Positions 22,240 through 46,422 of a DNA stretch of 64,000 nt are shown one piece after another. Position 1 is the stretch's first letter, and the number at the start of each line of letters is the position of its first letter. The notes under the pieces were generated by a model, which was given only the letters and a program-made list of their open reading frames with translations, was not told the DNA's origin and made no database searches. A program made the position numbers and the translations under genes. Origin of the DNA: an uncultured Actinomycetota bacterium (lineage in GTDB: Bacteria > Actinomycetota > UBA4738 > HRBIN12); NCBI GenBank assembly GCA_963733635.1, contig CAVTEH010000004.1, positions 259,836 through 323,835 of the forward strand, read 5' to 3'.

Positions 22240-22254
22240 GTGACTTCAGGTCAC
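22240..22254. promoter_or_regulatory. operator-like palindrome GTGACTTCAGGTCAC
   Basis: 14 of these nt are identical to 39803-39816 in the tetR/corrinoid intergenic region. It lies about 120 nt upstream of the oxidoreductase/sox operon start. Confidence 0.5.
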
Positions 22255-22374
22255 AGGGGTTACGGTCATCCTGAACTGGGGCGTCACTACACTCGCTGAC
22301 CGCACGTTCACTCGCGCTCGGGGCAGCGCACGCGGCACTACCCACGGAGACGACCATGGCGAACGGGTCCGGGA

Positions 22375-23980
22375 ATGGCGACGAAGGGCTACGACGTCAT
22401 CGTCGTCGGGGGCGGCCACAACGGGCTCACCGCCGTCCTTCTACTTCGCGCGGGCGGGGCTTCGCACCCTGGTGCTGGAGCGCCGCGAGATCGTGGGGGG
22501 CGCCTGCGTCACCGAGGAGATCGTGCCCGGGGTTCGCGCGTCCACCACGTCCTACATCGCATCGATGCTTCGTCCCGAGGTGATCCGCGACCTGCGCCTG
22601 GGCGACCACGGACTGAAGATGGTGCCCTGCGAGCCGGGCGTGCAGAGCGCCTTCGAGGATGGGACCGTCGTGCCGTGGTGGACCGACCACGCCCGAACCG
22701 TCGAGGAGTTCGCGAAGATCTCCCCGAAGGACGCCAAGGAGTTCGACACCGTCCACGCCCGGCTGGAGAAGCTCGCGCGCTACCTGCAGCCCTACTTCCT
22801 GGAAGAGCCGCCGGACCTGTACGCCAAGGGCTGGAAGCGCGTGCACGAGGCGCGCCGCGCGTTCAAGCGGTTCCGCAGGGTCACGGGTGACGAGCGTCAG
22901 CGACCTGATCCGGTTCACGACCGGGTCGCTGGGCGACTTCGTGGAGCGCCACTACGAGACCGAGAAGATCCGCCGCATGTATCTGGCCTCCAACGTGTAC
23001 GGCATGCACGCGCCGCCGTACCGCCCCGGCACGGCGATCGGCCTGATGTTCCACATGCTCTCGGGCGGCGACGACGAGGTGCAGGGCTTCTACGGCCACG
23101 TGATGGGCGGCATGGGCTCGATCACGGCCGCGATGGCGAGCGCCGCGACAGGCGCGGGTGCCGAGATCCGCACGAACGCATCCGTGGCACGCATCGACAC
23201 GCGGGGTGGGCGCGCGACCGGGGTCGTGCTGGAGGACGGCACCGAGATCGCCGCGTCCACGGTCGTGTCCAACGCCGACCCCAAGCGCACCTACCTGGGG
23301 CTGGTCGACGCGGCCGAACTCAGCGAGGACTTCCGCGACGACATCGCCGCGATCAAGATGGCCGGTCCCTGCGCCAAGGTGAACTTCGCGCTGTCGGCCG
23401 AGCCCCGGTGGACGGGCATGCCCGCCGACGCCGATCCCAACCGCCGTTCGCTGGCCACGCTGGTGCCCACGTTCGAAGAGGCCCAGCGCAGCGTACGACC
23501 AGCACCAATGGGGAGAGATCCCCGACGAGCTCTGGGTCGACTGCGTCACGGCGTCCAACGTCGACCCGACGCTGGCGCCCGAAGGGACGCACGTGATGAC
23601 CTCGTTCGTGCAGTACGTCCCGTTCGAGCTGCGCGACGGGGACTGGGACTCGCGCCGGCAGGAGCTGGTGGACAAGGTGGTCGAGCGCATCGAACGGTAC
23701 GCGCCCGGCTTCGCCCAGCACGATCGAGGGCACGTACGTCGTCACGCCGCTGGACCTGGAGCGCACCTACGGCATGACCGAGGGCAACATCTTCCACGGC
23801 GACCTGTCGATCGAGCAGCTCTTCTTCATGCGTCCGCTGCCGGGCTGGGCGGACTACCGCTCGCCGATCCGGGGTCTGTACCTGTGTGGCGCGGGCGTGC
23901 ATCCCGGCGGTGGGGTGACGGGCGCGCCCGGCTACAGCGCGTCGCACCGCGTGCTTCGGGACCTCAAGAAGGCCCGGTAG
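22375..23980 (+). CDS. phytoene-desaturase-family (CrtI-like) NAD(P)/FAD-dependent oxidoreductase (at least 4 frame changes)
   Basis: YDVIVVGGGHNGL; LVLERREIVGGACVTEE; GFYGHVMGGMGSITAAMA; C-terminus GNIFHGDLSIEQLFFMRPLPGWADYRSPIRGLYLCGAGVHPGGGVTG. The pieces come from ORFs 22375, 22472, 22659, 23593 and 23774. Confidence 0.7.
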
Positions 23981-23987
23981 AGCCGGC

Positions 23988-24221
23988 ATGGCGCTGACGG
24001 TGCCGTGCCCGAACTGCGGCCCGCGTCCGCACACCGAGTTCACGTTCGGCGGTGAGCTTCGTCCGATCGGTGTCACCGATCCCGAGGAGGACTTCGCGCG
24101 CGTCTACCTGCCCGAGAACGCGGCCGGCCTGCAGCGGGAGCGATGGTTCCACGCGATGGGGTGCAAGCGGTGGGTGACGCTCACCCGCGACACCCGCACG
24201 AACGAGGTCACCGCACCGTGA
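23988..24221 (+). CDS. soxD: sarcosine oxidase delta subunit family protein
   Basis: Intact 77-aa ORF: CPNCGPRPHTEFTFGGE...WFHAMGCKRW. Confidence 0.8.
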   Translation: MALTVPCPNCGPRPHTEFTFGGELRPIGVTDPEEDFARVYLPENAAGLQRERWFHAMGCKRWVTLTRDTRTNEVTAP

Positions 24222-26882
24222 GCGGCGGGACGCTTCAACTTCGAAGGCGACCGCCGTGGCGTTCGAGGACGGGGACACGGTCGCCTCGGCCCTGTACCGC
24301 CACGGAGTCCGCACGTTCACCCGGTCGCTGAAGTATCACCGCCGCCGCGGCCTGTACTGCGGCACGGGCGACTGCCCGAACTGCCTGATCAGGGTCGACG
24401 GGGTGCCGGCGGTTCGTTCGTGCACGACCCCGGTCGCGGAGGGCATGCAGGTCGAACGCGAAGACGGATGGCCGAGCACCGAGTTCGACCTGATCAGCGT
24501 CACCGACAAGCTGCACGCGTTCATGCCGGTGGGGTTCTACTACAAGACGTTCGTGAGGCCCCGGTTCGCCTGGGAGGCGGCGGAGAAGGTGATCCGCCGC
24601 GCGACCGGCCTGGGGCGGCTGCCCGATGGCGCTGCCGCCGACCGCGATCGATGCGCGTCATGCCCACGCCGACGTGCTGGTGATCGGCGCCGGCATCGCG
24701 GGTCTCGCCGCGGCCCTCGAAGCCGCAGGCCGAGGCGAGACGGTGCTGGTCGCCGACGAGGCGACGATCGGCGCCGCGATCGCGCCGGGCCCGACGCTCG
24801 AGCGTCTGCAAGCCCTTGAAGCCGAGGCACGTCGCACCGACCGCATCACGATCCTGGAAGGGCACGCCGCGATCGGCGTGTACGAGGGCCCCATGGTGCC
24901 GCTCGTGGCCGCCGGCGCGGTGGTCCAGGTGCATCCGGGCCGGATCGTGGTGGCGACCGGTGCGGCCGAGGCACACGGCGTCTTCGACGGCAACGATGTG
25001 CCCGGCGTGTGGTTGGGACGCGGCGCCGCGCGGCTGGCCGGCGTGCATCGGGTCTCGCCGGGCGAGCGCGCCGTGGTCGTGGTCACGGGTGACGAGGGCC
25101 TCGAGCATCTGCGGACGCTGCGTGAGGCGGGCGTCCGGGTCATCGCCGTGGTTCCCGCAATGCTCGCCGATCGCGTGCCGGTGGGCGTGCAGTCGATCGT
25201 GGATGCCCGGGTGGTCCGCGCCGAGGGCACGACGTCGGTCACCTCGGTCGTGGTGCGAGATGGGGCGGCGACCGCAGGATCGCCTGCGACGCCGTCGGTG
25301 CTGTCGCTGGGCCTGGCACCTCGCGACGGCCTGCTCCGCATGGCGCTGCCGGACGAACCGGTCGTGGGGGCCGGTGACGTCGTCGTCCCCGGCTGTTCTC
25401 CCGAGCGAGGCCGAGGCGTCGGGCCGGGCCGCGGCGCGACGGAGAGGCCGACGCGACCTCGGATCGGCATGCGCATGACGCCGAGCTCAGCCGATGCGGG
25501 GATCGTCTGCCTGTGCGAGGACGTCGGCGTCCAAGGACCTCGAGCAGGCATGGGGCGAGGGGTACCGCTCGTCGGAGATCCTGAAGCGATACACCACCGC
25601 GACGATGGGCCCGTGCCAGGGGGCGATGTGCGGGCGTCACCTGGCTGCGTTCTGTGCCGCCCGTGCTCCGGAGGCCGACGTGGCGCGAGCGGGGGTGCGC
25701 ACCACCGCCAGGCCGCCCGCCCGGCCCGCCACGCTCGAGGCGCTCGCCGCCACCGTCCACGAGGTGATCCCGAAGCGCACGTCATTGCATCGCATCCACC
25801 TGGAAGCCGGCGCCACCATGGGGTGGTCCGGCAGCTGGCAGCGCCCGTTCACCTACGGGAACTGGCGCGAGGAGTACCGGGCGGTGCGCGAGCGCGTGAG
25901 CCTGATGGACGTGGGCACGCTCGGCAAGTTCTTGGTGCGCGGCCCCGACGCCGAGCGCCTGGTCGATCACGTGGCGCCGTGCCGGGTCGACGATCTGCCG
26001 CCGGGCCGCTCGCGCTACCTGCTGGCGCTGGGCGAAGCGGGCTACGTCACCGACGACGGCTTGCTGTGCCGCCTGGACGACGGCTTCTACGTCACGTCCA
26101 CCTCAGGCGGAGCGGCGCGCATGGACGCCGGGTTGCGCGACTGGGCCGACCGTCTCGAGCTCCGAGTGCACATCGTGGAACAGACCGCGCAGCTGGGCGC
26201 GATCGTGGTGGCGGGCCCGCACGCGCGCGACCTGCTGGCGTCCCTGTGCGATGACGGCGATGTGTCCCGCGACGCATTCCCCTACCTGGGTCACCGTGAG
26301 ATCTCGGTCGCGGGAGTCGCGTGCCGGGCGATCCGGCTCGGCTTCGTGGGGGAGCTGGCCTACGAGCTGCATCACCCTCGTCGACGGGGCCCAGCGCTGT
26401 GGCAGGCGCTGTCGATGGCGGGAGAGCCGTTCGATCTGCTGCCGCACGGGCTCGACGCGCTGGAGCTGCTCCGCCTGGAGAAGGGCCACGTGTACCTGGG
26501 CCAGGACACGCTGCCCGACGACACGCCCGCCAAGCTGGGGATGTCGTGGGCGGTGGCGATGGACAAGCCCGACTTCGTGGGCAAGGTGGCGTTGCGACGG
26601 ATGTCGGCGCTGCCCCCGGAACGCCGCATGGTCGGCCTGCGTTTCGACGGCGTCATCGGCGCGGTGGCGGACCTGCGTGGTGTGCCGCTGACCGCGGGGG
26701 ACCGGATCGTCGGTCGCATCACGTCGGCGGAGCACTCCCCGGCGGTCGACGCCGGCATCGGGCTCGGATGGATCCAGGCCGCTCGACGGCGAGTTCCCGA
26801 CGCAGTTGCACGCGAACGGTGCATCGCCACGGTCGTGCCGACGCCGTTCTACGACCCGGAAGGGGCCAGGCTCCGTGGTTGA
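24218..26882 (+). CDS. soxA: sarcosine oxidase alpha subunit family protein (several frame changes)
   Basis: FEDGDTVASALYRHGVRTFTRSLKYHRRRGLYCGTGDCPNCLIRVDG; DVLVIGAGIAGLAAA; C-terminal GcvT-like fold LGKFLVRGPDA...LRLEKGHVYLGQD. Pieces come from ORFs 24256, 24626 and 25494. GTGA overlap with soxD. Confidence 0.75.
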
Positions 26883-27325
26883 CGTTCGCGTGTCCGAGCC
26901 CACGGTGGTCCACGTCCTGCGCTCGTCCCGAGGCGATCGAGCGCCGCCGCTGGCCGTGGCGCCCGCGGCCCACGCCGCGAGGGTGGCGCCGGACGAGCTG
27001 CTCTGCTCGATCGATCCTGAAGCGGGCGATGACATCGCCGATGTCGTCACCGTCGCCGATGCGGACGGCCTCGTCCTCGACGTGAGCGACGGCTGGACGG
27101 CCTGGACGCTGAGCGGTCCGGACGCGCGAGGCGCGTTCGTCGCGGCTCTCCGAGCTCGAGCTTCCCGATCGAGGTTTCGTCCAGGGCGAGGTCGCGCGAC
27201 TCCCGGTGAAGGTGCTCGTCGACGACGACCTGGTGACGCTGCTGATCCCGGCGATGTGGTCCGACCACCTGGGTGCGCGGATCCGCGCCGGCTGTGCGGC
27301 GCTGGGTGTGCGGGAGGTGTCGTAG
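26875..27325 (+). CDS. soxG: sarcosine oxidase gamma subunit family protein (frameshift near 27140)
   Basis: Small ORF between alpha and beta. WTAWTLSGPDARGAF, then in another frame LPVKVLVDDDLVTLLIPAMWSDHLGARI. Confidence 0.5.
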
Positions 27326-28505
27326 GTGACCGGCCTGTTCCGCTCGCGGACCTACCTCACGGCTCCGAGTCGGTCGAGCCCAGCCTACGACGTGGTGATC
27401 GTGGGCGGTGGCGTGAACGGACTTGTCGCTGGCCTTCCACCTGGCCGACAAGCACGGAGTCACGAACGTCGCCGTGCTCGAGCGCAACTACATCGGTTCG
27501 GGCGGTTCGGGCCGCAACACCCAGGTGCTCCGTGCCAACTACAACACGCCCGGAGACCGTGCCGCTCTACCAGGGCGAGCCTCGGCATGTATCGCACGCT
27601 CAGCCAGGAGCTGGACTTCAACGTGCTGTTCTCCAACCAGGGCGAGCTGGACCTGTGCCACACGCAGGACTCGCTTGCAGGTCGAACGTGAGAAGTCGCT
27701 GCTCAACCGCGCCTTCGGCGTGCAGACCGACATCCTGACCCCGGACGAGGTCGCCCGCACGCAACCGCTGTCGATCTGTCCGGCGGCGGCGAGCTTCCGG
27801 TGGTGGGTGCGTCGCTGCACCCGCCGGGCTCGTTCGCGCGGCACGACTCGGTGGTCTGGGGCTACGCCGTGGCGGCGGAGCGACGCGGTGTCCACGTCCA
27901 CGAAGGCGTAGAGGTCACCGGCTTCGATGTGGATGACGGCCGCTGCACGGGGCGTCCGGACGACAGCGGGACCGATCGCAGCGGGGTTGGTCGTGTCGGC
28001 GGTGGCCGGGTACTCCAGCGAGCTGGCGCGCATGGCGGGCGTGCACCTGCCGATCGAGACGATGTGCCTGCAGGCGTTCGTCACCGAGCCCTACACGCCG
28101 GTGCTCACCGGCCTCGTGTCGTCGATGGACCTGTTCATCTACGTGTCGCAGACGGCTCGCGGCGAGCTGCTGGCCGGGGCCGAGGTCGTGCCGTACACGA
28201 CGTACTCGACGCGTTCGACCTTCGAGTTCCTTGCGGAGGCGGCGAAGCGTTCGATCCAGATCCTGCCCTTCATGGCGAAGGCCCGCGCGATGCGACAGTG
28301 GGGGGGCCTGTGCGACATGACGCCCGATTCATCCCCGATCCTGGGCGCGAGCGGCGTCGAGGGGTTCTCGATCATGGCCGGCATGGGCACGTGGGGATTC
28401 AAAGGGGCACCGATCTTCGGCTCGACCATGGCCGAGGCGATCGTCACCGGACGCACCCCCGAGCTGATCGCAACCGTTCGCGCTGAGCCGCTTCCGGCTG
28501 GATAG
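27326..28505 (+). CDS. soxB: sarcosine oxidase beta subunit family FAD oxidoreductase (several frame changes)
   Basis: YDVVIVGGGVNGL; GSGGSGRNTQVLRANYN; LCDMTPDSSPILG...GMGTWGFKGAPIFG. Pieces come from ORFs 27326, 27423, 27800 and 27927. Confidence 0.75.
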
Positions 28506-28595
28506 CATGGTGCCCGACGCGGCAAGTGCCGGCACGCACTGAGCCTCGAGTGGAGGGCCGATGGTCCGAACACGCCCGAGAGCCGAATACCTCCG

Positions 28596-30189
28596 GTGAC
28601 CACCCGGATCGACGCGACCCAACGCGCCGCAGGGTCGACCCCAGGAACCGTTCCTGCGCGCCGGATATTCGGCGCCGTGATGGGTCTGCTCGCGGCTGGC
28701 GTCGCGATCGGCGTCGCCCATCTGGTGGCGGGGTTCGTGAGCCGCGAAGCCTCACCGGTGGTGGCCGTCGGGTCGGCGGCGATCGATCTGACGCCCGAGT
28801 GGCTCAAGAGCTTCGCGATCCGAACGTTCGGTGAGCAGGACAAGCTGGTGCTGCTGGGCGGCATCGGCGTGTTCCTGGTCATCGTCGCCGTGGTCCTGGG
28901 CATCGTGTCGGTCCGCCGGAAGGTCGTCGGACTCGTCGGACTCGGTGTGTTCGGCGCCCTGGGAGTGGTCGCCTCGCTCACCAGACCCACGGCGAGCCTG
29001 GTTGACGCGTTGCCTTCCATCGTCGGCGCGGCCGCCGGCGCGTTCACCCTGATCGGGCTCCACGCCCGGTTGCCCTACGGCGAAGGTGCTGGTGAAGAAG
29101 AGGCCGCCGAGCCGATCGGTGTCGAACGGCGCCGCTTCCTGATGGGCGGGCTCGCCGCTGTCGGGGCCGCTCTGGCAGCCGGTGGTGTGGGCCAGCTGCT
29201 CTCGCGCCGATTCGCGGCGGACGAGTCGCGCGCCGCGGTCACGATCCCGCAGGCCGCCGACGTCGCCGCCCCGGCCCCGGCAGGCGCCGAGCTGGGCGTC
29301 GAAGGGCTCACCCCGTTCTACACGCCGAACGACGACTTCTACCGGGTGGACACCGCCTTGATCGTGCCGGCGGTGGCAACCGAGGATTGGTCGCTGCTCG
29401 TCCACGGCATGGTCGACCGCGAGCTCACCTTCGGCTTCGACCAGCTCATCGGCCCGAGATCTGATCGAGCGTGACATCACGCTTGCCTGCGTCTCGAACG
29501 AGGTCGGTGGCCCCTACATCGGCAACGCCCGATGGGTCGGGGCGCCGCTCGCCGATCTGTTGGCCGAGGCCGGCGTCGACCCCGGCGCGGACCAGCTGGT
29601 CTCGCGATCGGTCGACGGCTTCACGGTCGGCACGCCCACCGCCGTGGTCATGGACGGACGGGACGCCATGTTGGCCGTCCAGATGAACGGCGAACCGCTC
29701 CCGCTGGAACACGGGTTCCCCGTGCGCATGCTCGTCCCAGGGCTCTACGGCTACGTGTCGGCGACCAAGTGGATCACCGAGCTGGAGCTGACGACGTTCG
29801 ATGCCTTCGACCCGTACTGGATCCGGCGCGGCTGGGCCGAGCAGGCCCCCATCAAGACACAGTCCCGGATCGACACCCCCAAACCCCTCGCAACGGTGCC
29901 CGCCCACGGAACCGTGATCGCAGGCGTCGCCTGGGCGCAACAGCGAGGGATCGAACGGGTCGAGATCCGCATCGACGACGACCCATGGGTCGACGCTGAG
30001 CTCGCCGCGCAGGACACGATCGACACGTGGCGCCAATGGCGGTACCAGTGGAACGATCCGTCGCCCGGCAACCACACGGTGCAGGTTCGCGCCACCGACG
30101 CCACCGGCGAAACGCAAACCACCGAACGTGTCGAGCCGTTCCCGAACGGCGCGACCGGCCAACACCAACTGGTGGTGGCGGTGGCCTGA
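28596..30189 (+). CDS. membrane-anchored molybdopterin-dependent oxidoreductase (sulfite-oxidase fold; frameshift near 29455)
   Basis: N-terminal multi-TM region and a Tat-like RRRFLMGG. Catalytic part CVSNEVGGPYIGNARWVGAPL...HGFPVRMLVPGLYGYVSATKWITELEL. Confidence 0.7.
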
Positions 30190-30243
30190 CCACCCAGGGA
30201 ACGTCACCAGGTGACCGTTCCGCTCGAAGCTAGACTGCGGGCC

Positions 30244-30735: not shown

Positions 30736-30745
30736 GCGGTATCTC

Positions 30746-31885
30746 GTGAGACGCGTAGGGATCGTGGGAGGCGGTCAGCTCGGCCGCATGTTGGCGCTCG
30801 CCGGCTACCCGATGGGCATCCGTTGCATCACGCTCGACCCGTCGGCCTCCTCGCCTGCGGCACAGGTCGCGCCCTCCCTCGTCGGCGACTACGACGATCG
30901 GGTGTTGCTCGCCGAGCTCGCCGAGCGATCGGATGTGATCACCTACGAGTTCGAGAACGTGCCGGTCGAAGCGGCGCGGTTCGCTCAGACACTGTGCCCC
31001 GTCCTCCCACCGCCCGAGTCGTTGGAGGTCGCACAGGACCGGCTCGCCGAGAAGCGCATGTTCGAGCGCATGGGTTTGGACGTGCCCCCCTACGAGGCGG
31101 TCGATTCGCTTGAGGACCTGTCCGGGGCCTTGTCGCGCTTGGGCACGCCCGCGGTGCTGAAATCTCGCCGCCTCGGCTACGACGGCAAGGGGCAGACGGT
31201 GATCGGCGACCCAGCGCTCGCCGAGGAAGCATGGCGGGCGATCGGACAAGTGCCCGCCCTGCTCGAAGGATTCGTCGCCTTCGAACGAGAGCTCTCGATC
31301 GTGGCGGTCCGTGGCATCGACGGTGCTATGGGGGCGTATCCGCTGGTCGAGAACCACCACCGCGACGGCATCCTGCGGCTCACACTGGCTCCCGCGCCCG
31401 GCCTCGATCCCCGGCTCCAACGAGCCGCCGAGGACGTCGCCCGGTCGATCATGGACGCCCTCGGCCACGTCGGCGTGGCGGCCATCGAGCTGTTCCAATC
31501 TGGTGGTCGGCTGCTCGGGAACGAGATGGCGCCGCGCGTGCACAACAGCGGTCACTGGACCGACGTCGGGGCTCGGACCAGTCAGTTCGAAAGCCATCTG
31601 CGAGCGATCACGGATCTATCGCTCGGGCCGACCGATGCGATCGGTTTGAGTGCCATGGTGAACATGATCGGCTCGATGCCCGACGTGGCGGCCATCGCCG
31701 CCGTGCCCGGCGCGCACCTGCATGACTACGGCAAGGAACCGAGGCCGGGGCGGAAGCTCGGGCACGTGACCGTCTGCGCCGACGACGTCGCCACGCTCCA
31801 GGCCAGATCGTCGGCGGTCCAGGCGCTGGTCGACGCCGTCCATCCGAGCCCCGGGAGGGAGTCGAACCCCCGACCCGCTGGGTAG
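30746..31885 (+). CDS. purK: 5-(carboxyamino)imidazole ribonucleotide synthase
   Basis: VGIVGGGQLGRML, ATP-grasp core and NEMAPRVHNSGHWT. The last ~39 nt of the ORF run antisense through tRNA-Arg, so the true stop is uncertain. Confidence 0.85.
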   Translation: MRRVGIVGGGQLGRMLALAGYPMGIRCITLDPSASSPAAQVAPSLVGDYDDRVLLAELAERSDVITYEFENVPVEAARFAQTLCPVLPPPESLEVAQDRLAEKRMFERMGLDVPPYEAVDSLEDLSGALSRLGTPAVLKSRRLGYDGKGQTVIGDPALAEEAWRAIGQVPALLEGFVAFERELSIVAVRGIDGAMGAYPLVENHHRDGILRLTLAPAPGLDPRLQRAAEDVARSIMDALGHVGVAAIELFQSGGRLLGNEMAPRVHNSGHWTDVGARTSQFESHLRAITDLSLGPTDAIGLSAMVNMIGSMPDVAAIAAVPGAHLHDYGKEPRPGRKLGHVTVCADDVATLQARSSAVQALVDAVHPSPGRESNPRPAG

Positions 31886-31919
31886 AAACCAGCTGCTCTG
31901 TCCGCTGAGCTACCGGGGC
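31847..31919 (-). tRNA. tRNA-Arg (anticodon TCT)
   Basis: Reverse complement GCCCCGGTAGCTCAGCGGACAGAGCAGCTGGTTTCTACCCAGCGGGTCGGGGGTTCGACTCCCTCCCGGGGCT. Confidence 0.85.
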
Positions 31920-32032
31920 GTCACCGTCTCGATGGTAGAGCACGCCGAGCGGAAATCCCACGCAGCGGCGCCCGCCCCGCTATCGTCAAGCCGGCCGCCA
32001 GGGATACCGTGCGCGGCGAGGGGGGATCGATC

Positions 32033-32458
32033 ATGGGATGGCTCGCGCAGACGACCACCACCGACAGCGACTTCGCGTGGGGTCTGTGGATCTTCATCTA
32101 TCTCGGCTTCATCGTGATCTTCGCCATCGCGTCGTGGCAGATGTACGTGAAGGCCGGGTACGAGGGGTGGAAGGCACTGATCCCCTTCTACAACTGGTAC
32201 ATCCTGTTGAAGATCGTCGGAAGGCCGGGATGGTGGCTGATCCTCTACTTCATCCCGTTCGTCAACTTCGTCATCTGGATCATCGTCATGGTGGACCTGT
32301 CGAAGAGTTTCGGGCACGGCGTCGGCTTCGCGCTCGGACTGATCTTCCTCAGCTTCATCTTCATCTTGATCCTGGGATTCGGGTCGTCTCGATACCTCGG
32401 TCCGGCCGGGCCGGAAGGTGGCTCGATGACCTCGCCACCACCACCGATGCCTGCCTGA
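32033..32458 (+). CDS. DUF5684-like small membrane protein
   Basis: WQMYVKAGYEGWKALIPFYNWYILLKIVGRPGWWLILYFIPFVNF. 3-4 TM segments and a Pro-rich tail. Confidence 0.6.
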   Translation: MGWLAQTTTTDSDFAWGLWIFIYLGFIVIFAIASWQMYVKAGYEGWKALIPFYNWYILLKIVGRPGWWLILYFIPFVNFVIWIIVMVDLSKSFGHGVGFALGLIFLSFIFILILGFGSSRYLGPAGPEGGSMTSPPPPMPA

Positions 32459-32473
32459 TCTCGAGCCCCGCGC

Positions 32474-32502
32474 GGAGCGGGTGACGGGAATCGAGCCCCG
32501 CA
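32474..32502. repeat. degenerate copy of the 3' end of tRNA-Gly
   Basis: ggagcgggtgacgggaatcga (21 nt) is identical to 33349-33369 and then diverges (gccccgca vs acccgca). No 5' half is present. Confidence 0.7.
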
Positions 32503-32751
32503 GGTGCGCTCCCTACGCGGTGGGCGCTACTTTGCTGGGCTACTCGGCGACGACCCGACGTGCCCGCCCACGCCCGCCGACCTTGCGAGGGGCGTCCCGT
32601 GGCCTGACGGCTCACCGGTCGTCTGGTACCCGAGCCCGAGGTATCCCGACGAGTGGCCCGGCTAGCTGGCCCAGGGGATCCCGCGGGCCGCGATGTGTCC
32701 TGCGGCGTCCGGGGGTCGTACTGTCGAACCCGCTACCGAGGAGGACTTGTG

Positions 32752-33321
32752 ATGCGCAGCGTGACATATTCGATGGGCGTCTCGCTTGACGGCTACATCG
32801 TCGGGCCGGACGGCGGCTTCGACTGGCCGGGGTTCGACGAGGAGGTCTTTCGCTTTTGGATCGACGAGATCCGAGGGGTCGGCGTCCACCTGTTGGGACG
32901 ACGGCTGTACGAGACGATGCTGTACTGGGAGACCGCCGACCAGGATTCATCGCTCGACGACTCAAGCCGCGAGTGGGCCGCGCTCTGGAAGCCGCTCCCG
33001 AAGGTGGTGTTCTCCGCCACGCTGTCGGCGGTGCAGGGCCATGCTCGCCTGGCCTCCGTCGGCCTGGGGGAGGAGATCGAGCGGTTGCGAGCCGAGCCGG
33101 GGGAGGGCGACATCGCGATCGGCGGCGCGACGCTCGCAGCCGAGGCGGCCACGTTGGGTCTGATCGACGAGTACCAGGCTATGGTCTACCCGGTGCTGGT
33201 TGGCGGTGGCATTCCGTTCTTTCCCCAGCGCGAGCGCCGGGTGGATCTCGAACTCGTCGAGACCCGCACCTTCAGCTCGAGAGTTGTCTACCTCCGCTAC
33301 CGCGTGGCGCGCAAGCCCTGA
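32752..33321 (+). CDS. dihydrofolate-reductase-like (RibD C-terminal domain) family protein
   Basis: MGVSLDGYIVGPDGGFDW...LLGRRLYETM...IAIGGATLAAEAATLGLIDEYQAMVYPVLVGGG. RBS gaggagg. Confidence 0.75.
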   Translation: MRSVTYSMGVSLDGYIVGPDGGFDWPGFDEEVFRFWIDEIRGVGVHLLGRRLYETMLYWETADQDSSLDDSSREWAALWKPLPKVVFSATLSAVQGHARLASVGLGEEIERLRAEPGEGDIAIGGATLAAEAATLGLIDEYQAMVYPVLVGGGIPFFPQRERRVDLELVETRTFSSRVVYLRYRVARKP

Positions 33322-33347
33322 GCGCTGCGCGAACACGTCCTGACCCG

Positions 33348-33421
<74 letters not shown>

Positions 33422-33469
33422 ACGATGCGGACCCAGCCTACCGTGTGCGCCTGGCATACTCGCGCCCTT

Positions 33470-33745
33470 GCGGGTTCCCTTCCAGCTGCTCGACGTGTTC
33501 GCCGAGTCCCGTTCGCGGGCAACCAGCTCTGCTCGGTGCTCGATCCTCCCGACGGACCGGATACCGATGCCATGCGCATCGTGGCTCGCGAGATCGGAAT
33601 CTCCGAGATCACCTTCGTGACCGCGGTCCGGCCAGATGGTACGACTGCGAAGACCCCGCGACCGGGTCGGTGGCGGTGTTCACATCGTGGGCGAAGGCGC
33701 GTTCCGGCTGACGAGCGACGACGCGGGTCCGCTCCCGACTACTAG
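33470..33745 (+). pseudogene. PhzF-family isomerase remnant (internally deleted, frameshifted)
   Basis: N-terminal PFAGNQLCSVLDPPDG...AMRIVAREIGISEITFV, joined after a gap to a C-terminal-like GGVHIVGEGAFRL in another frame. About 200 aa are missing. Confidence 0.5.
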
Positions 33746-34152
33746 GAGACCTGACCGCACCCCACCATCGGCTCGCTGACCACGTCATCGGCGCCGGCTT
33801 CTACCTGGACGACCAGGTGCCAGCCCTTGCCGGCCGCCAGCTCATCGACGCCTTCGTACGCCGTCTCACCGTTACCGAACACCGCTGTGGTGTCTCCCGC
33901 GGGGATCACCTCGCACCGGACGAACGCGGGGGCGGTGCCGGTGTTGACGACGTCGTAGCGATAGCACACAGGGACGCCGGAGTTGAATGGGCATTCCATG
34001 GGCTGGGGCAGGCCTACAGTGAGCTCCGCGGTGCGGGCCGGCGCGTTGGTGGTGAGGAACAGCAGCGCCGCGGCGGTGATGAGACCGGCGACCAGGAGCA
34101 TCGCCAGCACGTTGTACGTGGTGTTGGTGCGCGTCGCAGCCGTGGATCCCAT
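33742..34152 (-). CDS. membrane-anchored hypothetical protein
   Basis: N-terminal TM segment (YNVLAMLLVAGLITAAALLFL) followed by a Cys-containing extracytoplasmic domain. Confidence 0.5.
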   Translation of the reverse strand: MGSTAATRTNTTYNVLAMLLVAGLITAAALLFLTTNAPARTAELTVGLPQPMECPFNSGVPVCYRYDVVNTGTAPAFVRCEVIPAGDTTAVFGNGETAYEGVDELAAGKGWHLVVQVEAGADDVVSEPMVGCGQVS

Positions 34153-34293
34153 GGCTCGTCACGCTAGTCGAGCCATGTCGCACAGCACAACGGGCGGAAG
34201 TCGCAAACCGTTGGGTGGTTTGCTTGCGTGAGGTTGCAGCCGCCAGGTATGGTTCCGCCTGCAGCGTAACGTACTTCGACCAGGAGGTTCCCC

Positions 34294-35070
34294 GTGACCG
34301 TGCTTGTCACCCGCCGTGCACTCATCATCGTTATCACTGTCGCATCGCTCGTGACTGGATCGTCCATGGAGGCGACGTCGGCTGCGCCTCGCGGTTGCGG
34401 GGTCAAGAACGTCACTCAGGACACATGGTTCGGCAGGAACTCCGGCCTGGCGCTCGCGAGGGCGATCGCCCAAGCGAACGATGGTGACCGTCTGAACGTG
34501 TTCGGGACCTGTGTCGGGGGCTACACCATCAGCAAGGACCTGACGATCGCGGGAAGCTCGAACAGGCGGAGGCCCACCACGCTGAGCGGTGGCGGGGTTG
34601 CACGGGTCCTGGCGGTCAACCCCGAGGCGGTCGTGACTTTCATCGACCTCACGGTGACCCGTGGCAGCTCGGACATCGGCGGTGGCGGGGGCATCGCGGT
34701 CTCCGAGGGCACCACCGTGACGCTTCGCCGCGTCAAGGTGCTGCGCAACGTCACGACTAACGCGGGAGGCGGCATCGTGAACGGCGGCGATCTGCGCCTG
34801 ATCAACTCGCGGGTGAGCCGGAACCACTCCGGCATCGACGGCGGCGGTATCTATAACTACGGCGAGGTCTCGCTGGAGAACGTCACCGTGTACGGGAACA
34901 CCGCCGATGGCGGTGGGGGAGGCCTGTTCAACGAGGGCACCGCGACCCTGAACCGCTCGCGGGTTCGTCACAATACGGCGGCCTCCGGCGGTGGCATCCT
35001 GAGTGTGAACACGCTGGTGATCACCAACTCGGACATCAGCGACAACACGCCCGACGACTGCGCCTGCTGA
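34294..35070 (+). CDS. secreted right-handed beta-helix repeat protein
   Basis: Signal-like N-terminus. Repeated GGGI/GGGL...N.G...L...V..N units such as NAGGGIVNGGDLRLINSRVSRNHSGIDGGGIYNYG. Confidence 0.65.
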   Translation: MTVLVTRRALIIVITVASLVTGSSMEATSAAPRGCGVKNVTQDTWFGRNSGLALARAIAQANDGDRLNVFGTCVGGYTISKDLTIAGSSNRRRPTTLSGGGVARVLAVNPEAVVTFIDLTVTRGSSDIGGGGGIAVSEGTTVTLRRVKVLRNVTTNAGGGIVNGGDLRLINSRVSRNHSGIDGGGIYNYGEVSLENVTVYGNTADGGGGGLFNEGTATLNRSRVRHNTAASGGGILSVNTLVITNSDISDNTPDDCAC

Positions 35071-35087
35071 TCGGAGGCCGGCCGGAC

Positions 35088-35204
35088 ATGCGACTCCACC
35101 GAGTGTTCCAGCGGCTACCGTTGTTCCTGCTGCTCATCGCGACGGTGCTGCTGCTGGTGGGTTGTCCGAGTGACGGAAGCGGGGGGAACGGCGGCGGGTA
35201 CTGA
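35088..35204 (+). CDS. small putative lipoprotein (38 aa, below the ORF-track cutoff)
   Basis: MRLHRVFQRLPLFLLLIATVLLLVGCPSDGSGGNGGGY* with lipobox LVGC. GGAGG sits 11 nt upstream of the ATG. Confidence 0.4.
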   Translation: MRLHRVFQRLPLFLLLIATVLLLVGCPSDGSGGNGGGY

Positions 35205-35289
35205 CCACCCGAAGGTCGGATGCGGACCCATGACAGAGTCCGGACCGGAGCGTCAGAAGAAGCTGGATACGCCCTAGAATCACCACTCA

Positions 35290-35363
35290 CGGGGCGTAGC
35301 GCAGCCTGGTAGCGCACCTGCTTTGGGAGCAGGAGGTCGCGGGTTCGAATCCCGCCGCCCCGA
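35290..35363 (+). tRNA. tRNA-Pro (anticodon TGG)
   Basis: CGGGGCGTAGCGCAGCCTGGTAGCGCACCTGCTTTGGGAGCAGGAGGTCGCGGGTTCGAATCCCGCCGCCCCGA. Confidence 0.9.
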
Positions 35364-35364
35364 C

Positions 35365-36174
35365 ATGAAGAACCCAACTCGTGACGCCCGACTCGGCGTG
35401 ATCTCGCTCGTTGTGGCTGTCGCGCTCGCGCTGGGAGCCTTCGGTGTCGCCCGGGCCGGGGCGCGCAATGGCGGCGCCGCTCCCCAGTTGCTGCCCGACA
35501 TCGTGATGCGTCCGATCACCGAGACTCGGATCGTGAAGAGGAAGGGCGTCAAGCTGCTCCGGTTCTCGAGCATCATCGGGAATCGCGGCAATGGGGTGGT
35601 CGAGCTGTTCCCCCGGGAGAACGACTGCGACGGCAACGGGAACTTCAACGATGATCGCTCCGCTGTCCAACGGACCTATCGAGACACGAACGGGAGCGGC
35701 GCCTACGAACAGGGCGTGGACCAAGCAGGACCCACCCGCTTCGCCGGGTGCTCGTTCTTCCACCCGCAGCACAACCACTGGCATTTCGAGGAGTTCGCCC
35801 GGTACACGTTGTCGAGGCCGATGTCGGGACAGGTGGTGGCTTCGGCGGAGAAGGTCTCGTTCTGCGTTCGGGACAGCATCCGGTTCGCGTCCGGGCTTCC
35901 GGGGTCACCGGGCATCCCTGCTTACGGCGAATGCTCGGATAGACTCGACGAGCGGCTTGTCCGTGGGATGGGCCGACTACTACGGCTACTACCTTCCAGG
36001 ACAGGAGCTGGACATCCGGGGCCTGCCCTGGCATCGGTTCTGCCTTCGGCCTGGTGAGCGATCCGGGGAACCGCGCTCGTGGAATCCAACGATGGCAACA
36101 ACGAGCGTTCGACCCTGATCCGCATCCGGAAGCAGCAGGTGACCGACCTCGGGCGGTCCTGTTCGTCGGTGTGA
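35365..36174 (+). CDS. secreted lysyl-oxidase-like domain protein (frame changes near 35940 and 36050)
   Basis: Signal peptide MKNPTRDARLGVISLVVAVALALGA. CSFFHPQHNHWHFEEF (His-rich copper-site-like) and GWADYYGYYLPGQELDI. C-terminus ...ESNDGNNERSTLIRIRKQQV. The ATG lies 1 nt after tRNA-Pro. Confidence 0.55.
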
Positions 36175-36179
36175 GGTCA

Positions 36180-37303
36180 GGTTCGGTTCGGGCCCTCGGC
36201 CGTAGGCGGTCATGACGTCGACCAGACGATCGTGCGGCAGGGCGTGGGCGGTAACGCCGTCGATGCCGGTCATCGTCTGGGCGCCGACCAGGGCGTTCAG
36301 GATGGCTTCCTCGGTGGCCTCGATCGTGGCCCAGAACAGTGGGCTGATGGCTGCGTCGGGCAGCATCGCGACGTCCAACGGCGCGCCTGGGGCTTCGTCC
36401 TTGTAGCTCGCGAGCCGGCCTCGAGGTTCGCCGTGGCGAACGCCAGGAAGAGATCGCCGCTGGAATGCTCACCCGCTCCGCCGACGCGCGCGATGCCAAG
36501 ACCGGCGCGCTGGGCGATGCGTTCGAGCTGGTGCGGCAGCACCGGTGCGTCGGTGGCTACGATCACGATGATGGAGCCCGCTTCCGCCTGGGCGAACGGG
36601 CTGGGGATCTCGTCCGTGTCGATCGCGAGACCGACCGGCACTCCATCGACCGTCAGACGTTCCCGGTGACCGTAGTTGGCCTGCACCAGCGCGCCCACGG
36701 TCCAACCACCGTCGGCCTCGGTCAGGCGTCGGGACGCGGTGCCGGTTCCTCCTTTGAACTCGTGACACACCATGCCCGTGCCTCCGCCCACGTTGCCCTC
36801 CGGCACAGGCCGGCCGATGCTGTTCGAAGGGCTTCGTCCAGGTGCTCGGGCCGGACGTGGAAGCCGTTGATGTCGTTGAGTCCGCCGTCCCAGGTCTCGC
36901 CGACGACGGGAAGGCTCCAGAACGCAATGCTGTCGTCACGGGCTGCCATGTCGGAGGCAACGATGGCGTCGCGCACGACCCCCACGCTGTGCGTGTTGGT
37001 GATGGCGATCGGTGTGGTGAGCTGGCCTGATTCGCGCACCCACTCCAAGCCCGTGAGCTCGCCGTTGCCGTTCAATCGGTGGCAGCCCGCGAACAACGGC
37101 TGCGTGCTGATGTCGGCGTGAGGCACGATCACGGTAACGCCGGTGCGCACCGGTCCGACGCCCACCTGCAGCGGGCCTTCACCGGAGATCAGCGTGGTGA
37201 CGCCGACCAGCACGCCGTCGACGTCGGTGATGGCGTTGACCGGGCCGGTCCTGAGTTGGCCAACGGTGAGTCCGAGGTCGCGGTAGCGGGTCATCGGCGG
37301 CAC
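36180..37303 (-). CDS. DmpA/BapA-type aminopeptidase (peptidase S58; frame changes near 36790 and 36370; 3' end uncertain)
   Basis: NAITDVDGVLVGVTT...NGNGELTG...GNVGGGTGMVCHEFKGGTGTASR...SIIVIVATDAP...SSGDLFLAFATAN. The ORF stays open to 35989, but a family-typical length ends near 36180. Confidence 0.65.
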
Positions 37304-37614
37304 AGCCTACCGGGCGACGCACGGACGCTCGCGGTCACTGCGGCGGCCACGATGACGACCACGAGCAGCGGCGCCTTCAGCACGATCGCGACGGCGGCGG
37401 CGAGCACACCAGGGAGGCGTGCGTCGACCACCAGCTCTCGGTCTCCGCCCAGCGTGCTGATCGCGACCAGAGCGGCAAGGACCGCGGGCGCCAAGAGCGT
37501 GATCACCGGCCGAGCGAGCGGGAAGGGGACGACCGCCCAGCAGGATGGGCCCGAGCCCTTGATGGCGATCGTGCCGAGACCCACCGAGGGCCACGACGTC
37601 CACGTGGCGTTCAT
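37291..37614 (-). CDS. azlD: AzlD-family branched-chain amino acid transport protein
   Basis: Small, very hydrophobic protein (GLGTIAIKGSGP...LAPAVLAALVA...AAAVAIVL) directly after the azlC-like gene. Confidence 0.6.
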   Translation of the reverse strand: MNATWTSWPSVGLGTIAIKGSGPSCWAVVPFPLARPVITLLAPAVLAALVAISTLGGDRELVVDARLPGVLAAAVAIVLKAPLLVVVIVAAAVTASVRASPGRLCRR

Positions 37615-38326
37615 CGGCCGCGTCTCTCGTGGGTGCGTGCCCATCCTGATCGTGGTCGCCGCGCTTGAGTCCGAGCAGACACGCGAGGGCGGCAGTGATG
37701 ATCGGCACTCCGGGCGGCACGAACGGGGTCAGTGCGAGCGCGATCGCCGCTCCCAGGAGGGCGGCTTCCTTGGCGAGGCGCGACGTGAGGCGTGGCACCA
37801 GGAGGGCCAGGAACAGCGCGGGGAACGCTGCGTCGAGACCCCAGCTGGAGCGGGGTCACCGAAGATGTCGCCGAAGAGGACCCCTGCGACGGTGCCCGCG
37901 ACCCAGGCCGCGTACAGCACGACGCCCGAGCCCAGCAGGACATGCGGATTGAAGCGACCGTCGCGCTCGGCGGCGACGGCCCAGGTCTCGTCGACCGTGA
38001 GCTGTGCGTGTAGGAACCGTGACCATGCGTTGCCGGTCAGGGAGGGGGCCACGCTGACCCCGATCGGGGCGTACCGCAGCGTTGAGCAGAAGCGCTGCTG
38101 TGACGGCGGAGATCACGCTGCCTCCGGCGCCCAGGACGGACGCCGAGGCGAACTGCGCCGAACCAGCGAATGTGGTCGACGACATCACGATGGGGGCGAG
38201 CGAGCCCATGTCCGGCGGCCCGTGCGAGCACGCCGAAGGACACGCCGAAACCGGCACGGCGATGGCAAGCGGGGCGACGGCTCGGACGCCGTCGCGGGGG
38301 GTACGTTCGCGGGCGGGCTCGCTCAT
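37611..38326 (-). CDS. azlC: AzlC-family transporter (several frame changes)
   Basis: MSEPARERTPRDGVRAVAPLAIAV..., FAGSAQFA..., VLYAAWVAGTVAGVLFG and FPALFLALLVPRL-like segments, scattered over three frames. Confidence 0.5.
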
Positions 38327-38502
38327 CGGGTGGAGTTCAATGCTACGGGCGCTCGGCGAGCCTCTCGTTCTGCACCTGCGAGGCTTCCTCGCCTCGCCGC
38401 GCACGCACTCGTCAACGGCTTCCGGGTTCCAACCTAGGACGCGATCGTGTACCTGTTGACGAGCGACCACGAGGGAAGGGCGGCCGGGTAGCCTTCCTCG
38501 CG

Positions 38503-38988
38503 ATGCCCACGCTTGCTCAGGTCGCCTCCACCGTTGTGGGCCTCCCGGCGTCAGAGGTGATCCAGATGCTCCGCGGTCTGCCGCCGGCGCCCGACTACTC
38601 GCTGATGGTCAAGCCGCTTCGGTACCGAGAACGCGCCCATCTGTCCGCCTGGACGGACTTCGACGAGCGGTCGATCACGCTGCAGATGCCTGAGCCGTTC
38701 TTCCCGTTCGGCGAGGTGGTCCCGTATGCCGCGAAACGTCGGCAGACCGCCCGCAAGGGGGGCCCGCCACGATTCATCTGGCTCACGGAGGGCGTGACGT
38801 TCCGGACGCCGCGCGAGGTCCTTCGCTTCCTGTATTGCCACGAGTGGATGCACTGGTACCTGCGCGAGGTGTTGGGTCGCAGGTCGGCCGCTGAGACGGC
38901 GTGCGACCGGTTCGCGCTGCGTAACTACCGTCGCCGCGAGGTCACGTCCGCGGACGCGGACGCGGCGCTGGTCCGCAATGCACGCTGA
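38503..38988 (+). CDS. hypothetical protein with HExxH motif (putative metal-dependent hydrolase)
   Basis: LYCHEWMHWYL contains HEWMH. No other family assignment is possible by eye. Confidence 0.35.
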   Translation: MPTLAQVASTVVGLPASEVIQMLRGLPPAPDYSLMVKPLRYRERAHLSAWTDFDERSITLQMPEPFFPFGEVVPYAAKRRQTARKGGPPRFIWLTEGVTFRTPREVLRFLYCHEWMHWYLREVLGRRSAAETACDRFALRNYRRREVTSADADAALVRNAR

Positions 38989-39051
38989 AGTGCAGGCGCG
39001 ATGAAGAGCGACCAGCTCGGTCACTTCCTCCCCGCGTGGGTCGTATGGGGG

Positions 39052-39777
39052 CTAACGACAACGTCCTAGGACGGAACCGTTAGGGCCACAACGACCCACG
39101 CGAGCAGCACGACCACGGTGGTGCCTACCGCGCGCGCCGATGGCGCTCTCCAGCAGCGTCGTGAAGTCTTCGACACGCTGCTGTTGCCGCTCGGGTTGTG
39201 CCCGTAGCCGATGGAACAGCCCTGGGTCGAGCTCTTCGCTCACCAGTGCGTCCTGCAGGGAGTTCGAGAGCCAGTCGACCATGGACACGAGCATCTCCAG
39301 GTCGACGTCGGTGCGCACCTCGCCGCGCTCCTGGCCCCATTCCACGAACTCGAGCGTGCCGTACGGATCCTCGCTGACCAGGTACCGGTTGATCTCACGT
39401 TTCAGTGCGAGCTCCGTGCCGTAGTTGCCGATCAGGATCACACGGTTGGGGACCCAGTCCTCCTTGATCAGGTGCTCCGTGCGGGCGAGCCAGAAGCGAA
39501 GGACCGCGAAGTACCCCTGTTCGCGCACCTCGTCTGGGGCATCGAGCCAGGCGGGCAACTGAGCCACCGATCGCTTGTACGCCTCGAAGAACAGCCCCGA
39601 CTTCGACCGGAAGTGCTGGAAGATCGACCCCTTCGCGATGCCGAGCTCGCGAGCGATGTCCTCGACCTTCGTGCCGTGATACCCGTGCTCGGCGAAGTGG
39701 CGCATCGAGGATTCCACGATGCTGTTGCGCTTGGCCTGCGTGCGGACGCTGCGCGGCGTTCCAGTGATGGTCGACAT
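39052..39777 (-). CDS. TetR/AcrR family transcriptional regulator
   Basis: RNSIVESSMRHFAEHGYHGTKVEDIARELGIAKGSIFQHFRSKSGLF. Divergent from the corrinoid operon. Confidence 0.85.
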   Translation of the reverse strand: MSTITGTPRSVRTQAKRNSIVESSMRHFAEHGYHGTKVEDIARELGIAKGSIFQHFRSKSGLFFEAYKRSVAQLPAWLDAPDEVREQGYFAVLRFWLARTEHLIKEDWVPNRVILIGNYGTELALKREINRYLVSEDPYGTLEFVEWGQERGEVRTDVDLEMLVSMVDWLSNSLQDALVSEELDPGLFHRLRAQPERQQQRVEDFTTLLESAIGARGRHHRGRAARVGRCGPNGSVLGRCR

Positions 39778-39802
39778 GGCGCAAGCCAAGCGTACGACAT
39801 GA

Positions 39803-39816
39803 GTGACTTCAGGTCA
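39803..39816. promoter_or_regulatory. operator-like palindrome GTGACTTCAGGTCA (site 1, tetR-proximal)
   Basis: Starts 26 nt upstream of the tetR start codon. Identical to 22240-22253. Confidence 0.5.
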
Positions 39817-39898
39817 TGCGGGTCGCCGATGGAACCCGTCTCCACCGGATGCTGATGACCTGCCATCATGAGGTTTCTGGGCGATGCTCGGACCTCCT

Positions 39899-39911
39899 TG
39901 ACCTTAAGTCA
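39899..39911. promoter_or_regulatory. operator-like palindrome TGACCTTAAGTCA (site 2, operon-proximal)
   Basis: Its reverse complement TGACTTAAGGTCA differs at 1 of 13 positions from site 1. It ends 14 nt before the corrinoid-protein ATG. Confidence 0.45.
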
Positions 39912-43429: not shown

Positions 43430-43484
43430 CGTCGACGGGCGCCGGGCCGAAGCACCGGCCGAGGAACCGACCAAGAACCGGCCG

Positions 43485-45583: not shown

Positions 45584-45669
45584 GCCTCGCCACTCCAAGC
45601 TTGCAGGGGGCAGGGATCCGGGCGACGATAGGTCATTCAGAGAGAGGGGGAGCTCTGACGTTTGACCCG

Positions 45670-46405: not shown

Positions 46406-46422
46406 GAGGCAGCGGTCGACGG

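Follow-up and report, generated by a model that had tools for sequence, protein, structure and literature searches.

The 64-kb stretch of DNA analysed here (the window) from an uncultured Actinomycetota bacterium (contig CAVTEH010000004.1) carries three copies of a short palindrome, which are probably the operators of a single TetR-family regulator encoded within it (tetR, 39052-39777) and through which the first demethylation of a methylated amine and the oxidation of its remaining methyl groups would be jointly controlled. Two of the copies lie between tetR and a divergent operon for a corrinoid-dependent methyltransferase system of the MttB superfamily, and the other lies 17.5 kb away, upstream of an operon for a CrtI-like flavin adenine dinucleotide (FAD)-dependent amine oxidase and a heterotetrameric sarcosine oxidase (soxDAGB). 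A preliminary description of the window had proposed that one TetR regulator uses the same operator at both operons, and the comparative evidence assembled here speaks in favor of this proposal: palindromes of this type, with a specific spacer, co-occur with tetR across loci and are found at the apparent promoters of functionally linked operons.

In the window the 14-mer GTGACTTCAGGTCA occurs at 22240-22253 (site 1) and again, in identical form, at 39803-39816 (site 2), and a third copy, TGACCTTAAGTCA, is found at 39899-39911 (site 3). The coordinates and letters reported for these copies in the preliminary description proved exact on re-checking, as did their distances from the flanking genes: 122 nucleotides (nt) separate the end of site 1 from the ATG of the CrtI-like gene at 22375 (earlier given as about 120), 26 nt separate site 2 from the tetR ATG at 39777, and 13 nt separate the end of site 3 from the corrinoid operon ATG at 39925 (earlier described as following just after the site). 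If the alternative ATG of the CrtI-like gene at 22356 is used, site 1 ends 103 nt before it. In a window of 64 kb and 67% G+C we estimate that tens of exact 14-nt repeat pairs would arise by chance, and the repeat by itself therefore proves little. The consensus TGACYNNNRGTCA (TGACY-N3-RGTCA) has exactly three matches in the window, as against 0.21 expected from shuffles; all three are intergenic, and none of 100 shuffled versions of the window reached this number. Allowing one mismatch gives five matches as against 5.7 expected, which is the chance level and adds only two further positions.

We fetched 80 genome loci using similarity to the TetR protein as the only criterion (59-95% identity; metagenome-assembled genomes (MAGs) of Actinomycetota and Acidobacteriota), with each locus extending about ±10 kb. 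Exactly two TGACY-N3-RGTCA sites were found within 300 nt of the tetR start in 66 of the 80 loci, four sites in one and a single site in three. This spacer-specific pair at 66 of 80 orthologs points to a palindromic operator at the regulator's own promoter, as is characteristic of TetR/AcrR regulators. Ten loci have no site near the tetR start, and in eight of these tetR continues directly from the upstream gene; among the ten, L057 has the pair upstream of the corrinoid gene, and with it the whole operon, tetR being placed at the far end of that operon, and for L066 we found no explanation. In all, 2.28 Mb of fetched loci contain 256 sites, as against 5.9 expected from base composition, and 232 of these form 116 pairs that fall into spacing classes of 75-80, 88-92 and 96-103 bp. 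As a control we varied the spacer: a spacer of 3 nt gives 260 matches in the fetched loci and each of the other lengths between 0 and 8 nt gives 1 to 16. In the position-frequency table derived from the sites, position 5 is always a pyrimidine and position 9 always a purine. The preference for T at position 6 is weak, as is that for A at position 8 (about 48% each), and with flanks that carry no information the conserved element is best read as a 5-3-5 inverted repeat, TGACY-N3-RGTCA. The 6-1-6 repeat of the preliminary description fits the three window copies and has to be given up for the family as a whole.

The intergenic region between tetR and the corrinoid operon has a recurrent layout, with one operator on either side of a promoter-like element. 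In the window this element is the box at 39860-39870, the core of which (ATGATGSCAG) is invariant in the window and in L001-L016, and is also present in L165 and L166. Operators aside, the box is the best-conserved part of this intergenic region. The clade L017-L029 has a TAGGCT hexamer between the two sites, and in this clade the tetR-proximal site overlaps tetR codons 3-7 (T-D-Q-K-S; for example, L018 9975-9994), such that the same bases encode the TetR N-terminus and its own operator. The layout fits autorepression, with the promoters being assigned by inference; promoter and terminator scans and Rfam searches at both the tetR and the sox regions gave no match, and a consensus scan found no promoter. 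We noted that the sites follow the target promoters and not just tetR, as is seen in L057, in L102, where tetR is 4 kb distant and the site pair precedes the CrtI-like gene, and in L032, which has a pair at tetR beside a Rieske oxygenase gene and a single distal site about 115 nt upstream of an operon with BHMT-like and DAO genes, 10 kb from tetR. L055 has a second pair, which is flanked by the genes for a solute-binding protein and an ABC permease.

The nearest available relatives of the window's sox operon have kept site 1. The two closest CrtI-like homologs with retrievable DNA, at L161 (83% identical) and L162 (88% identical), have a perfect site upstream, namely TGACTTGAGGTCA at 9865, 124 nt before the ATG, and TGACCTCAGGTCA at 301, 96 nt before the ATG, and in each case the site is unique within its locus. 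Against a background of at most 16 matches per 2.28 Mb, any one locus would have a chance match within 150 nt of upstream DNA with a probability of about 10^-3. A three-way alignment of the window with these loci has two conserved islands, site 1 and a box about 35 nt downstream with TACACT or TAGACT, set in diverged flanks, and the inner bases of the site have likewise diverged. The hexamer (22288-22293) is a candidate promoter element of the sox operon, and a scan for a canonical sigma-70 promoter near it found none. The conserved block that it forms with the adjoining quasi-palindrome (22272-22310; TACACT and TGACCGCACGTTCA) has no Rfam match and may be a promoter and transcription start region or a second regulatory site. 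We also considered that a second operator, with a spacer of 4 or 7 nt, follows site 1. Since enrichment is confined to the 3-nt spacer (260 matches, as against 2 for a 4-nt spacer), we do not count this element as a TetR site and retain it only as a conserved box.

On its upstream side, site 1 adjoins a different gene in the window than in these relatives. In L161 and L162 an ion-channel gene runs into the site and uses its first TGA as a stop codon, and in the window a vapBC cassette (21583-22253 region) is inserted between the ion-channel gene and site 1, such that the site stays on the sox side and begins 3 nt past the stop of the PIN/VapC gene (21851-22237). Since L161 and L162 keep the site without vapBC, we rejected site 1 as a VapB operator or vapC terminator. 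Within the cassette, vapB (about 21613-21924) precedes vapC (21851-22237), and a small palindrome, GACTTAGTC, which occurs twice 13 nt apart at 21587-21608 just upstream of vapB, is a candidate VapB antitoxin operator. The two junctions of the cassette share the hexamer TGACTT (21586-21591 and 22241-22246), which may be a target duplication.

The link between TetR and the CrtI-like gene was also recovered from the other direction. Among 80 metagenome loci fetched with the CrtI-like protein, all 52 in which tetR adjoins the CrtI-like ortholog carry one site or more ahead of the CrtI-like gene, and 44 have two, whereas 25 of the 27 loci without tetR have no site, the exceptions being L118 (200 nt of upstream DNA covered) and L148. 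In the Acidobacteriota the tetR ortholog is divergent from an adjacent CrtI-like ortholog and the same site pair is present; in these loci the CrtI-like gene is followed by genes for a SoxB-like DAO protein and a BHMT-like protein, and a Rieske oxygenase gene is found downstream of tetR. It also speaks for the regulon that, among the open reading frames (ORFs) annotated around the window's sox operon, we recognised no local regulator gene.

The gene neighborhoods suggest what the regulon is for. Within 5 kb of the 80 tetR orthologs, the Mtg system and a GbcA-like Rieske oxygenase were each found in 22 loci, the CrtI-like gene in 8 and a BHMT-like gene in 7; three unrelated enzyme types (corrinoid MttB/MtgBCD, GbcA-like Rieske and BHMT-like) thus recur beside TetR, together with sarcosine-oxidase-type enzymes. 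Characterised relatives of the MtgB, GbcA and BHMT types take the first methyl group off glycine betaine, and it is because the neighbors are in this sense three alternative betaine demethylases that the regulon idea gains support from them. In the window itself the MttB-type, corrinoid, pterin, RACo/RamA and DUF1638 genes of an Mtg system stand together at 39925-45567 (they are intact in L165), and soxD, soxA, soxG and soxB, the four genes of a heterotetrameric sarcosine oxidase, are clustered at 23988-28505, all but soxD being frameshifted. The L007 ortholog of the window's MttB-like protein matches MtgB of D. hafniense (9yce) with E=6.5e-106 and 4yyc with E=7.6e-112. In the aerobic Ruegeria pomeroyi, MtgB, MtgC and MtgD, with RamA and the DUF1638 protein, have been shown to demethylate glycine betaine (PMC12478193). 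Gene content fits a route from betaine through dimethylglycine and sarcosine to glycine, which is the example that the preliminary description had offered. The CrtI-like oxidase, whose gene is the one most faithfully linked to TetR as well as to sox, BHMT and Rieske genes, is a candidate for a new dimethylglycine- or betaine-oxidising enzyme.

Taken together, the arrangement suggests the following mechanism. A TetR dimer would bind each palindrome. In the absence of inducer, binding at the pair on either side of the promoter-like box would repress tetR and the divergent mtg operon, and binding at site 1 would also bring under control the operon of the CrtI-like oxidase and sarcosine oxidase 17.5 kb away. 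An effector from the pathway would release TetR, and the first and the later oxidative demethylations would then come on together. Glycine betaine, dimethylglycine or sarcosine would be the most parsimonious effector, although its identity is a guess.

Several observations weigh against the regulon as described above, and they bear on its substrate, on site 1 and on the underlying data. Regarding the substrate, the residues with which D. hafniense MtgB binds glycine betaine are Y97, R312, H348 and F356 (PMC13080624). The L007 ortholog keeps only R312 and H348, which bind the carboxylate, and Y97 and F356 align with glycine, as they do in 4yyc. The best NCBIfam match of the Rieske neighbor, an enzyme encoded at other tetR loci and not in the window, is GbcA (NF058607), at 188 bits as against a cut-off of 670; it is thus related to GbcA but is not an equivalog. 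The corrinoid component similarly scores well below the MtgC cut-off, and the CrtI-like oxidase has no characterised close relative, its best match in the PDB being CrtI (E=5e-17) and its NCBIfam matches all being below cut-off. Furthermore, AzlCD and an S58 peptidase are conserved beside tetR in 39 of the 80 loci. These features leave some room, if less than an even share, for a real regulon that serves another methylated compound, such as proline betaine, carnitine-type betaines, choline, creatine or sarcosine, or N-methyl amino acids, or for one in which TetR acts as an activator at site 1, which lies at an activator-like distance from the -10-like box. We consider this unlikely on the whole, given that MtgB-, GbcA- and BHMT-type enzymes recur beside TetR along with the sarcosine-oxidase type and that glycine betaine is their simplest common denominator. 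The substrate is likely to be a quaternary amine bearing a carboxylate, for which glycine betaine would be the simplest candidate. A bolder view, which we regard as possible but rather doubtful, is that this TetR subfamily, shared by Actinomycetota and Acidobacteriota of soil, is dedicated to sensing glycine betaine (or dimethylglycine or sarcosine) and was wired lineage by lineage to three non-homologous first-step demethylases. The CrtI-like flavoprotein would then stand in for DgcAB/DMGO as a dimethylglycine (or betaine) oxidase of a new type.

As for site 1, it is single and not paired, and it ends 34 nt upstream of the sole conserved -10-like hexamer, where it would cover approximately positions -59 to -47. 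Because this position is unusual for simple steric repression, the sign and mechanism of control at site 1 are uncertain, and cooperation with another element, or activation, is conceivable there. No site was found in CrtI-like/soxDAGB clusters at 74% identity or less (about 70-74%; L081-85, L163, L164 and L167-169), and one such site-less cluster has a MarR gene upstream instead; given this absence, the wiring of the sox operon to TetR is best seen as recent and lineage-restricted in the Actinomycetota. A TetR gene could not be demonstrated in the genomes of L161 and L162. L165, which belongs to the same JGI sample series as L161 and encodes a TetR 90% identical to that of the window, shows full synteny with the window between the mtg operon and soxB, but the contig stops short of the CrtI-like gene. 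Some of these points would suit a reading in which only sites 2 and 3 function and site 1 is a chance or relic copy, so that the operons are not co-regulated: site 1 is single, lies a long way ahead of the start codon and beyond the -10-like box, and is missing from more distant clusters. Chance is also not negligible, as with 0.21 matches per shuffled window one extra match in 64 kb is not very rare, and the approximately 10 unpaired distal matches in other loci are not far from the 6 or so expected by chance. Nevertheless, a perfect site is found at the same place in L161 and L162 despite differing inner bases and flanks, site 1 survived the vapBC insertion upstream, and the link between TetR and the CrtI-like gene is seen independently in the Acidobacteriota; we therefore judge this reading to be quite improbable. 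The coupling of the two operons that the preliminary description proposed is supported by the pair kept at tetR orthologs in two phyla, by site 1 kept in the two nearest relatives, by the adjacency of tetR and the CrtI-like gene in the Acidobacteriota and by the gene content.

It is very improbable that the palindromes are bound by another factor or are RNA or DNA hairpins, such as 3'-end structures of the upstream genes. This reading has in its favor that the arms could make a 5-bp stem, that in L018 as well as in L161 and L162 the upstream gene terminates on the first TGA of the site, and that site 1 begins just past the stop of vapC. Against it, the stem is short and lacks a T-run, neither terminator-like features nor Rfam matches were found, a spacer kept strictly to 3 nt suits recognition by a protein, in one clade the sites overlap tetR codons 3-7, and the sites co-occur almost perfectly with tetR across two phyla.

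Regarding the data, nearly every large gene of the two operons is frameshifted in the assembly, with about 12 frameshifts in 22375-28505 and 39925-45567 (four in the CrtI-like gene, two in soxA, one in soxG, at least one in soxB, two in mtgC/D, one in the RACo gene and one in mttB). We rejected decay of both operons to pseudogenes as the principal explanation, since other genes of the window are broken in the same way and the pieces remain 75-90% identical to intact orthologs. Frameshifts occur at about one per kb in nearly all long genes of the window (for example, at 16994-19200 and 57551-60223); beyond the operons, the genes for a class-I aminoacyl-tRNA synthetase and for two aminotransferases are likewise interrupted, and the genes of the operons are intact in the close relative L165. 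The frameshifts are thus probably indel errors of the assembly and not gene decay. Among genome records, the closest are contigs of MAGs whose 'contig_' names are of the kind given by an assembler, and we assume a long-read origin for them.

The features of the window discussed here are collected in Table 1. The TetR protein has 241 residues, and its start at 39777 is backed by alignment of the N-terminus with 20 orthologs. Its approximately 24 additional C-terminal residues (ending in RGRHHRGRAARVGRCGPNGSVLGRCR; 39052-39125) are absent from the orthologs and are probably due to another frameshift that removed the native stop. The AF2 model consists entirely of helices and is of low confidence (pLDDT 56). 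No NCBIfam equivalog is matched, with BetI, AcrR, RutR, FadR and others all far below their cut-offs; the BetI models TIGR03384 and NF001978 give 34.2 bits (cut-off 201.3) and 28.9 bits (cut-off 118), respectively. The best sequence match in the PDB is AcnR (4ac6, E=1.5e-10), the closest ortholog (95% identity) is from the MAG 'MFD05567.bin.1.91', and an exact look-up of the window's TetR returned no record. A gene for an S58 (DmpA-type) peptidase lies downstream of tetR in 39 of the 80 loci (36722-38470 in the window, 5874-8050 in L165), with AzlC and AzlD genes between the two in L165 and fragments of these in the window.

Table 1. Features of the window at the sox and tetR/mtg regions; coordinates are positions in the window.
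Feature	Position	Strand	Basis or remark
Site 1	22241..22253	no strand	Single distal candidate operator TGACTTCAGGTCA upstream of the CrtI-like/sox operon; exact consensus match
-10-like hexamer TACACT	22288..22293	+	Candidate sox-operon promoter element (inferred); TACACT or TAGACT in window, L161 and L162
Quasi-palindrome TGACCGCACGTTCA (5-4-5)	22297..22310	no strand	Just after the -10-like box; kept in window, L161 and L162
CrtI-like FAD amine oxidase gene	22356 or 22375..23985	+	tblastn pieces in four frames against L072 and L161 orthologs; at least 4 frameshifts
soxD (sarcosine oxidase delta)	23988..24212	+	69% identical to L163 SoxD; PF04267 in the syntenic gene of relatives
soxA (alpha)	24256..26882	+	Fer2_4, Pyr_redox_2, SO_alpha_A3, GCV_T and GCV_T_C over three frames; NCBIfam soxA subfamily; 2 frameshifts
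soxG (gamma)	26890..27310	+	tblastn against L163 SoxG in two frames; 1 frameshift
soxB (beta, DAO family)	27326..28505	+	DAO domain in C-terminal half only; tblastn against L163 SoxB in two frames; at least 1 frameshift
tetR, TetR/AcrR-family regulator	39052..39777	-	PF00440, E=3.1e-16, residues 20-66; presumed binder of all three sites
Site 2	39804..39816	no strand	tetR-proximal candidate operator TGACTTCAGGTCA; one of the pair conserved at tetR orthologs
Conserved box CTGCCATCATG	39860..39870	no strand	Between sites 2 and 3; candidate back-to-back -10 region (inferred)
Site 3	39899..39911	no strand	Operon-proximal candidate operator TGACCTTAAGTCA, 13 nt before the mtgC-like ATG; one of the conserved pair
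Corrinoid protein (MtgC-like, to about 40520) and pterin-binding methyltransferase (MtgD/MtgA-like)	39925..41470	+	B12-binding_2, B12-binding, Pterin_bind; tblastn frames
RACo/RamA-type reductive activator of corrinoid protein	41477..43488	+	Fer2, RACo_linker, Raco_middle and RACo_C_ter in two frames; 1 frameshift
DUF1638 protein	43482..44075	+	PF07796; 78% identical to L007 ortholog
Non-pyrrolysine MttB-superfamily methyltransferase (MtgB-like)	44109..45567	+	PF06253; 75-90% identical to L007 ortholog; 1 frameshift
SAM-dependent methyltransferase	45601..46551	+	Methyltransf_11/25; partial match only in L001; operon membership uncertain

In the mtg operon the corrinoid and pterin-binding proteins read as a fusion in the window because of frameshifts, and in L165 they are encoded by separate genes of 217 and 293 codons. 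Alignment with orthologous loci backs a corrinoid start at 39925 and not the longer frame from 39868; the 1206-residue ORF at 39868-43488 was rejected as an artefact of high G+C and frameshifts. The RACo gene contains a perfect 36-nt tandem duplication (2.1 copies, 42207-42280), which doubles the peptide AQEAEGVARGEG. In L047 a MerR-type regulator with B12-binding domains (CarH-like; 3389-4327) adjoins the far end of the mtg operon, and ORFs that cluster with it were found in 16 of the fetched loci, with no counterpart in the window. A single-linkage clustering of all ORFs joined distinct families by way of overlapping spurious ORFs and served solely for the choice of representatives. On the sox side, the CrtI-like homologs carry an Amino_oxidase domain and have about 535 residues (L072 8197-9822; L161 10001-11605). 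The contig of a homolog with 86% identity (P0122), the next closest after L162, has ion channel, CrtI-like, SoxD, SoxA, SoxG, SoxB, PurE and PurK genes in the same order. Five tRNA genes were noted at 14522-14595, 16224-16298, 31847-31919, 33351-33421 and 35290-35363, three of them in the interval that separates the operons.

In soil, glycine betaine is both a major osmolyte and a supply of carbon, nitrogen and methyl groups. The gene circuit is well supported and of an ordinary kind, a TetR repressor with palindromic operators being a textbook arrangement; what it would add lies in its setting. This TetR family is widespread in uncultured soil Actinomycetota and Acidobacteriota, where it appears to link three alternative betaine demethylases, and aerobic cobalamin-dependent demethylation of betaine, which was recently described in marine bacteria, appears here as a single regulated operon in soil actinobacteria. 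If the regulon is real, the 13-bp motif would allow it to be read directly from MAGs, the TetR protein would be a candidate biosensor for methylated glycines, and the CrtI-like oxidase would be flagged as a probable enzyme of the pathway.

A full-text literature search, which leaves most subscription journals outside, turned up no account of this TetR family and none of MttB or sox genes with a TetR operator, and the subfamily seems to be undescribed. With AcnR, the aconitase repressor of Corynebacterium, after which one JGI homolog of the window protein is named, it shares the helix-turn-helix and apparently the TetR fold; the similarity is weak and no aconitase gene is found nearby, which makes the name an annotation carry-over. 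AmtR is a global nitrogen regulator that is released by GlnK and recognises a different box. In Corynebacterium glutamicum ATCC 14067 this TetR-family protein regulates creatine and sarcosine utilisation genes (PMC8864220). Like AmtR, the window regulator is an actinobacterial TetR-family protein that would act at several promoters on genes for a methylated nitrogen compound, but no sequence relationship was seen beyond the TetR family.

Among corrinoid systems, the window operon has the same set of components as MtgBCD, RamA and DUF1638 of R. pomeroyi (PMC12478193) and as the MtgB system of D. hafniense (PMC13080624). It differs from the former in being a single operon with a conserved operator pair, whereas the mtg genes are scattered in R. 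pomeroyi and the consulted sections of the report describe neither a TetR regulator nor an operator (PMC12478193), and from the latter in that the aromatic residues which bind glycine betaine in MtgB are not conserved.

Two further parallels in regulation come from the Proteobacteria. BetI is a TetR-family repressor of betIBA and betT in E. coli and other Proteobacteria that responds to choline. Our regulator resembles it as a TetR-family protein that is apparently autoregulated from a palindromic operator in a divergent promoter region and is associated with quaternary-amine metabolism, but it belongs to another subfamily, the BetI operator differs in sequence, and BetI governs the synthesis of glycine betaine from choline and not its demethylation. 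GbdR of Pseudomonas aeruginosa activates gbcAB, dgcAB and soxBDAG for the use of glycine betaine and dimethylglycine. It is an AraC-type activator, its first step is performed only by the Rieske enzyme GbcAB, and it involves neither a corrinoid system nor a CrtI-like oxidase. The logic nevertheless appears to be the same in both cases, with one regulator acting at several unlinked promoters to tie the first demethylation of glycine betaine to the oxidation of dimethylglycine and sarcosine.

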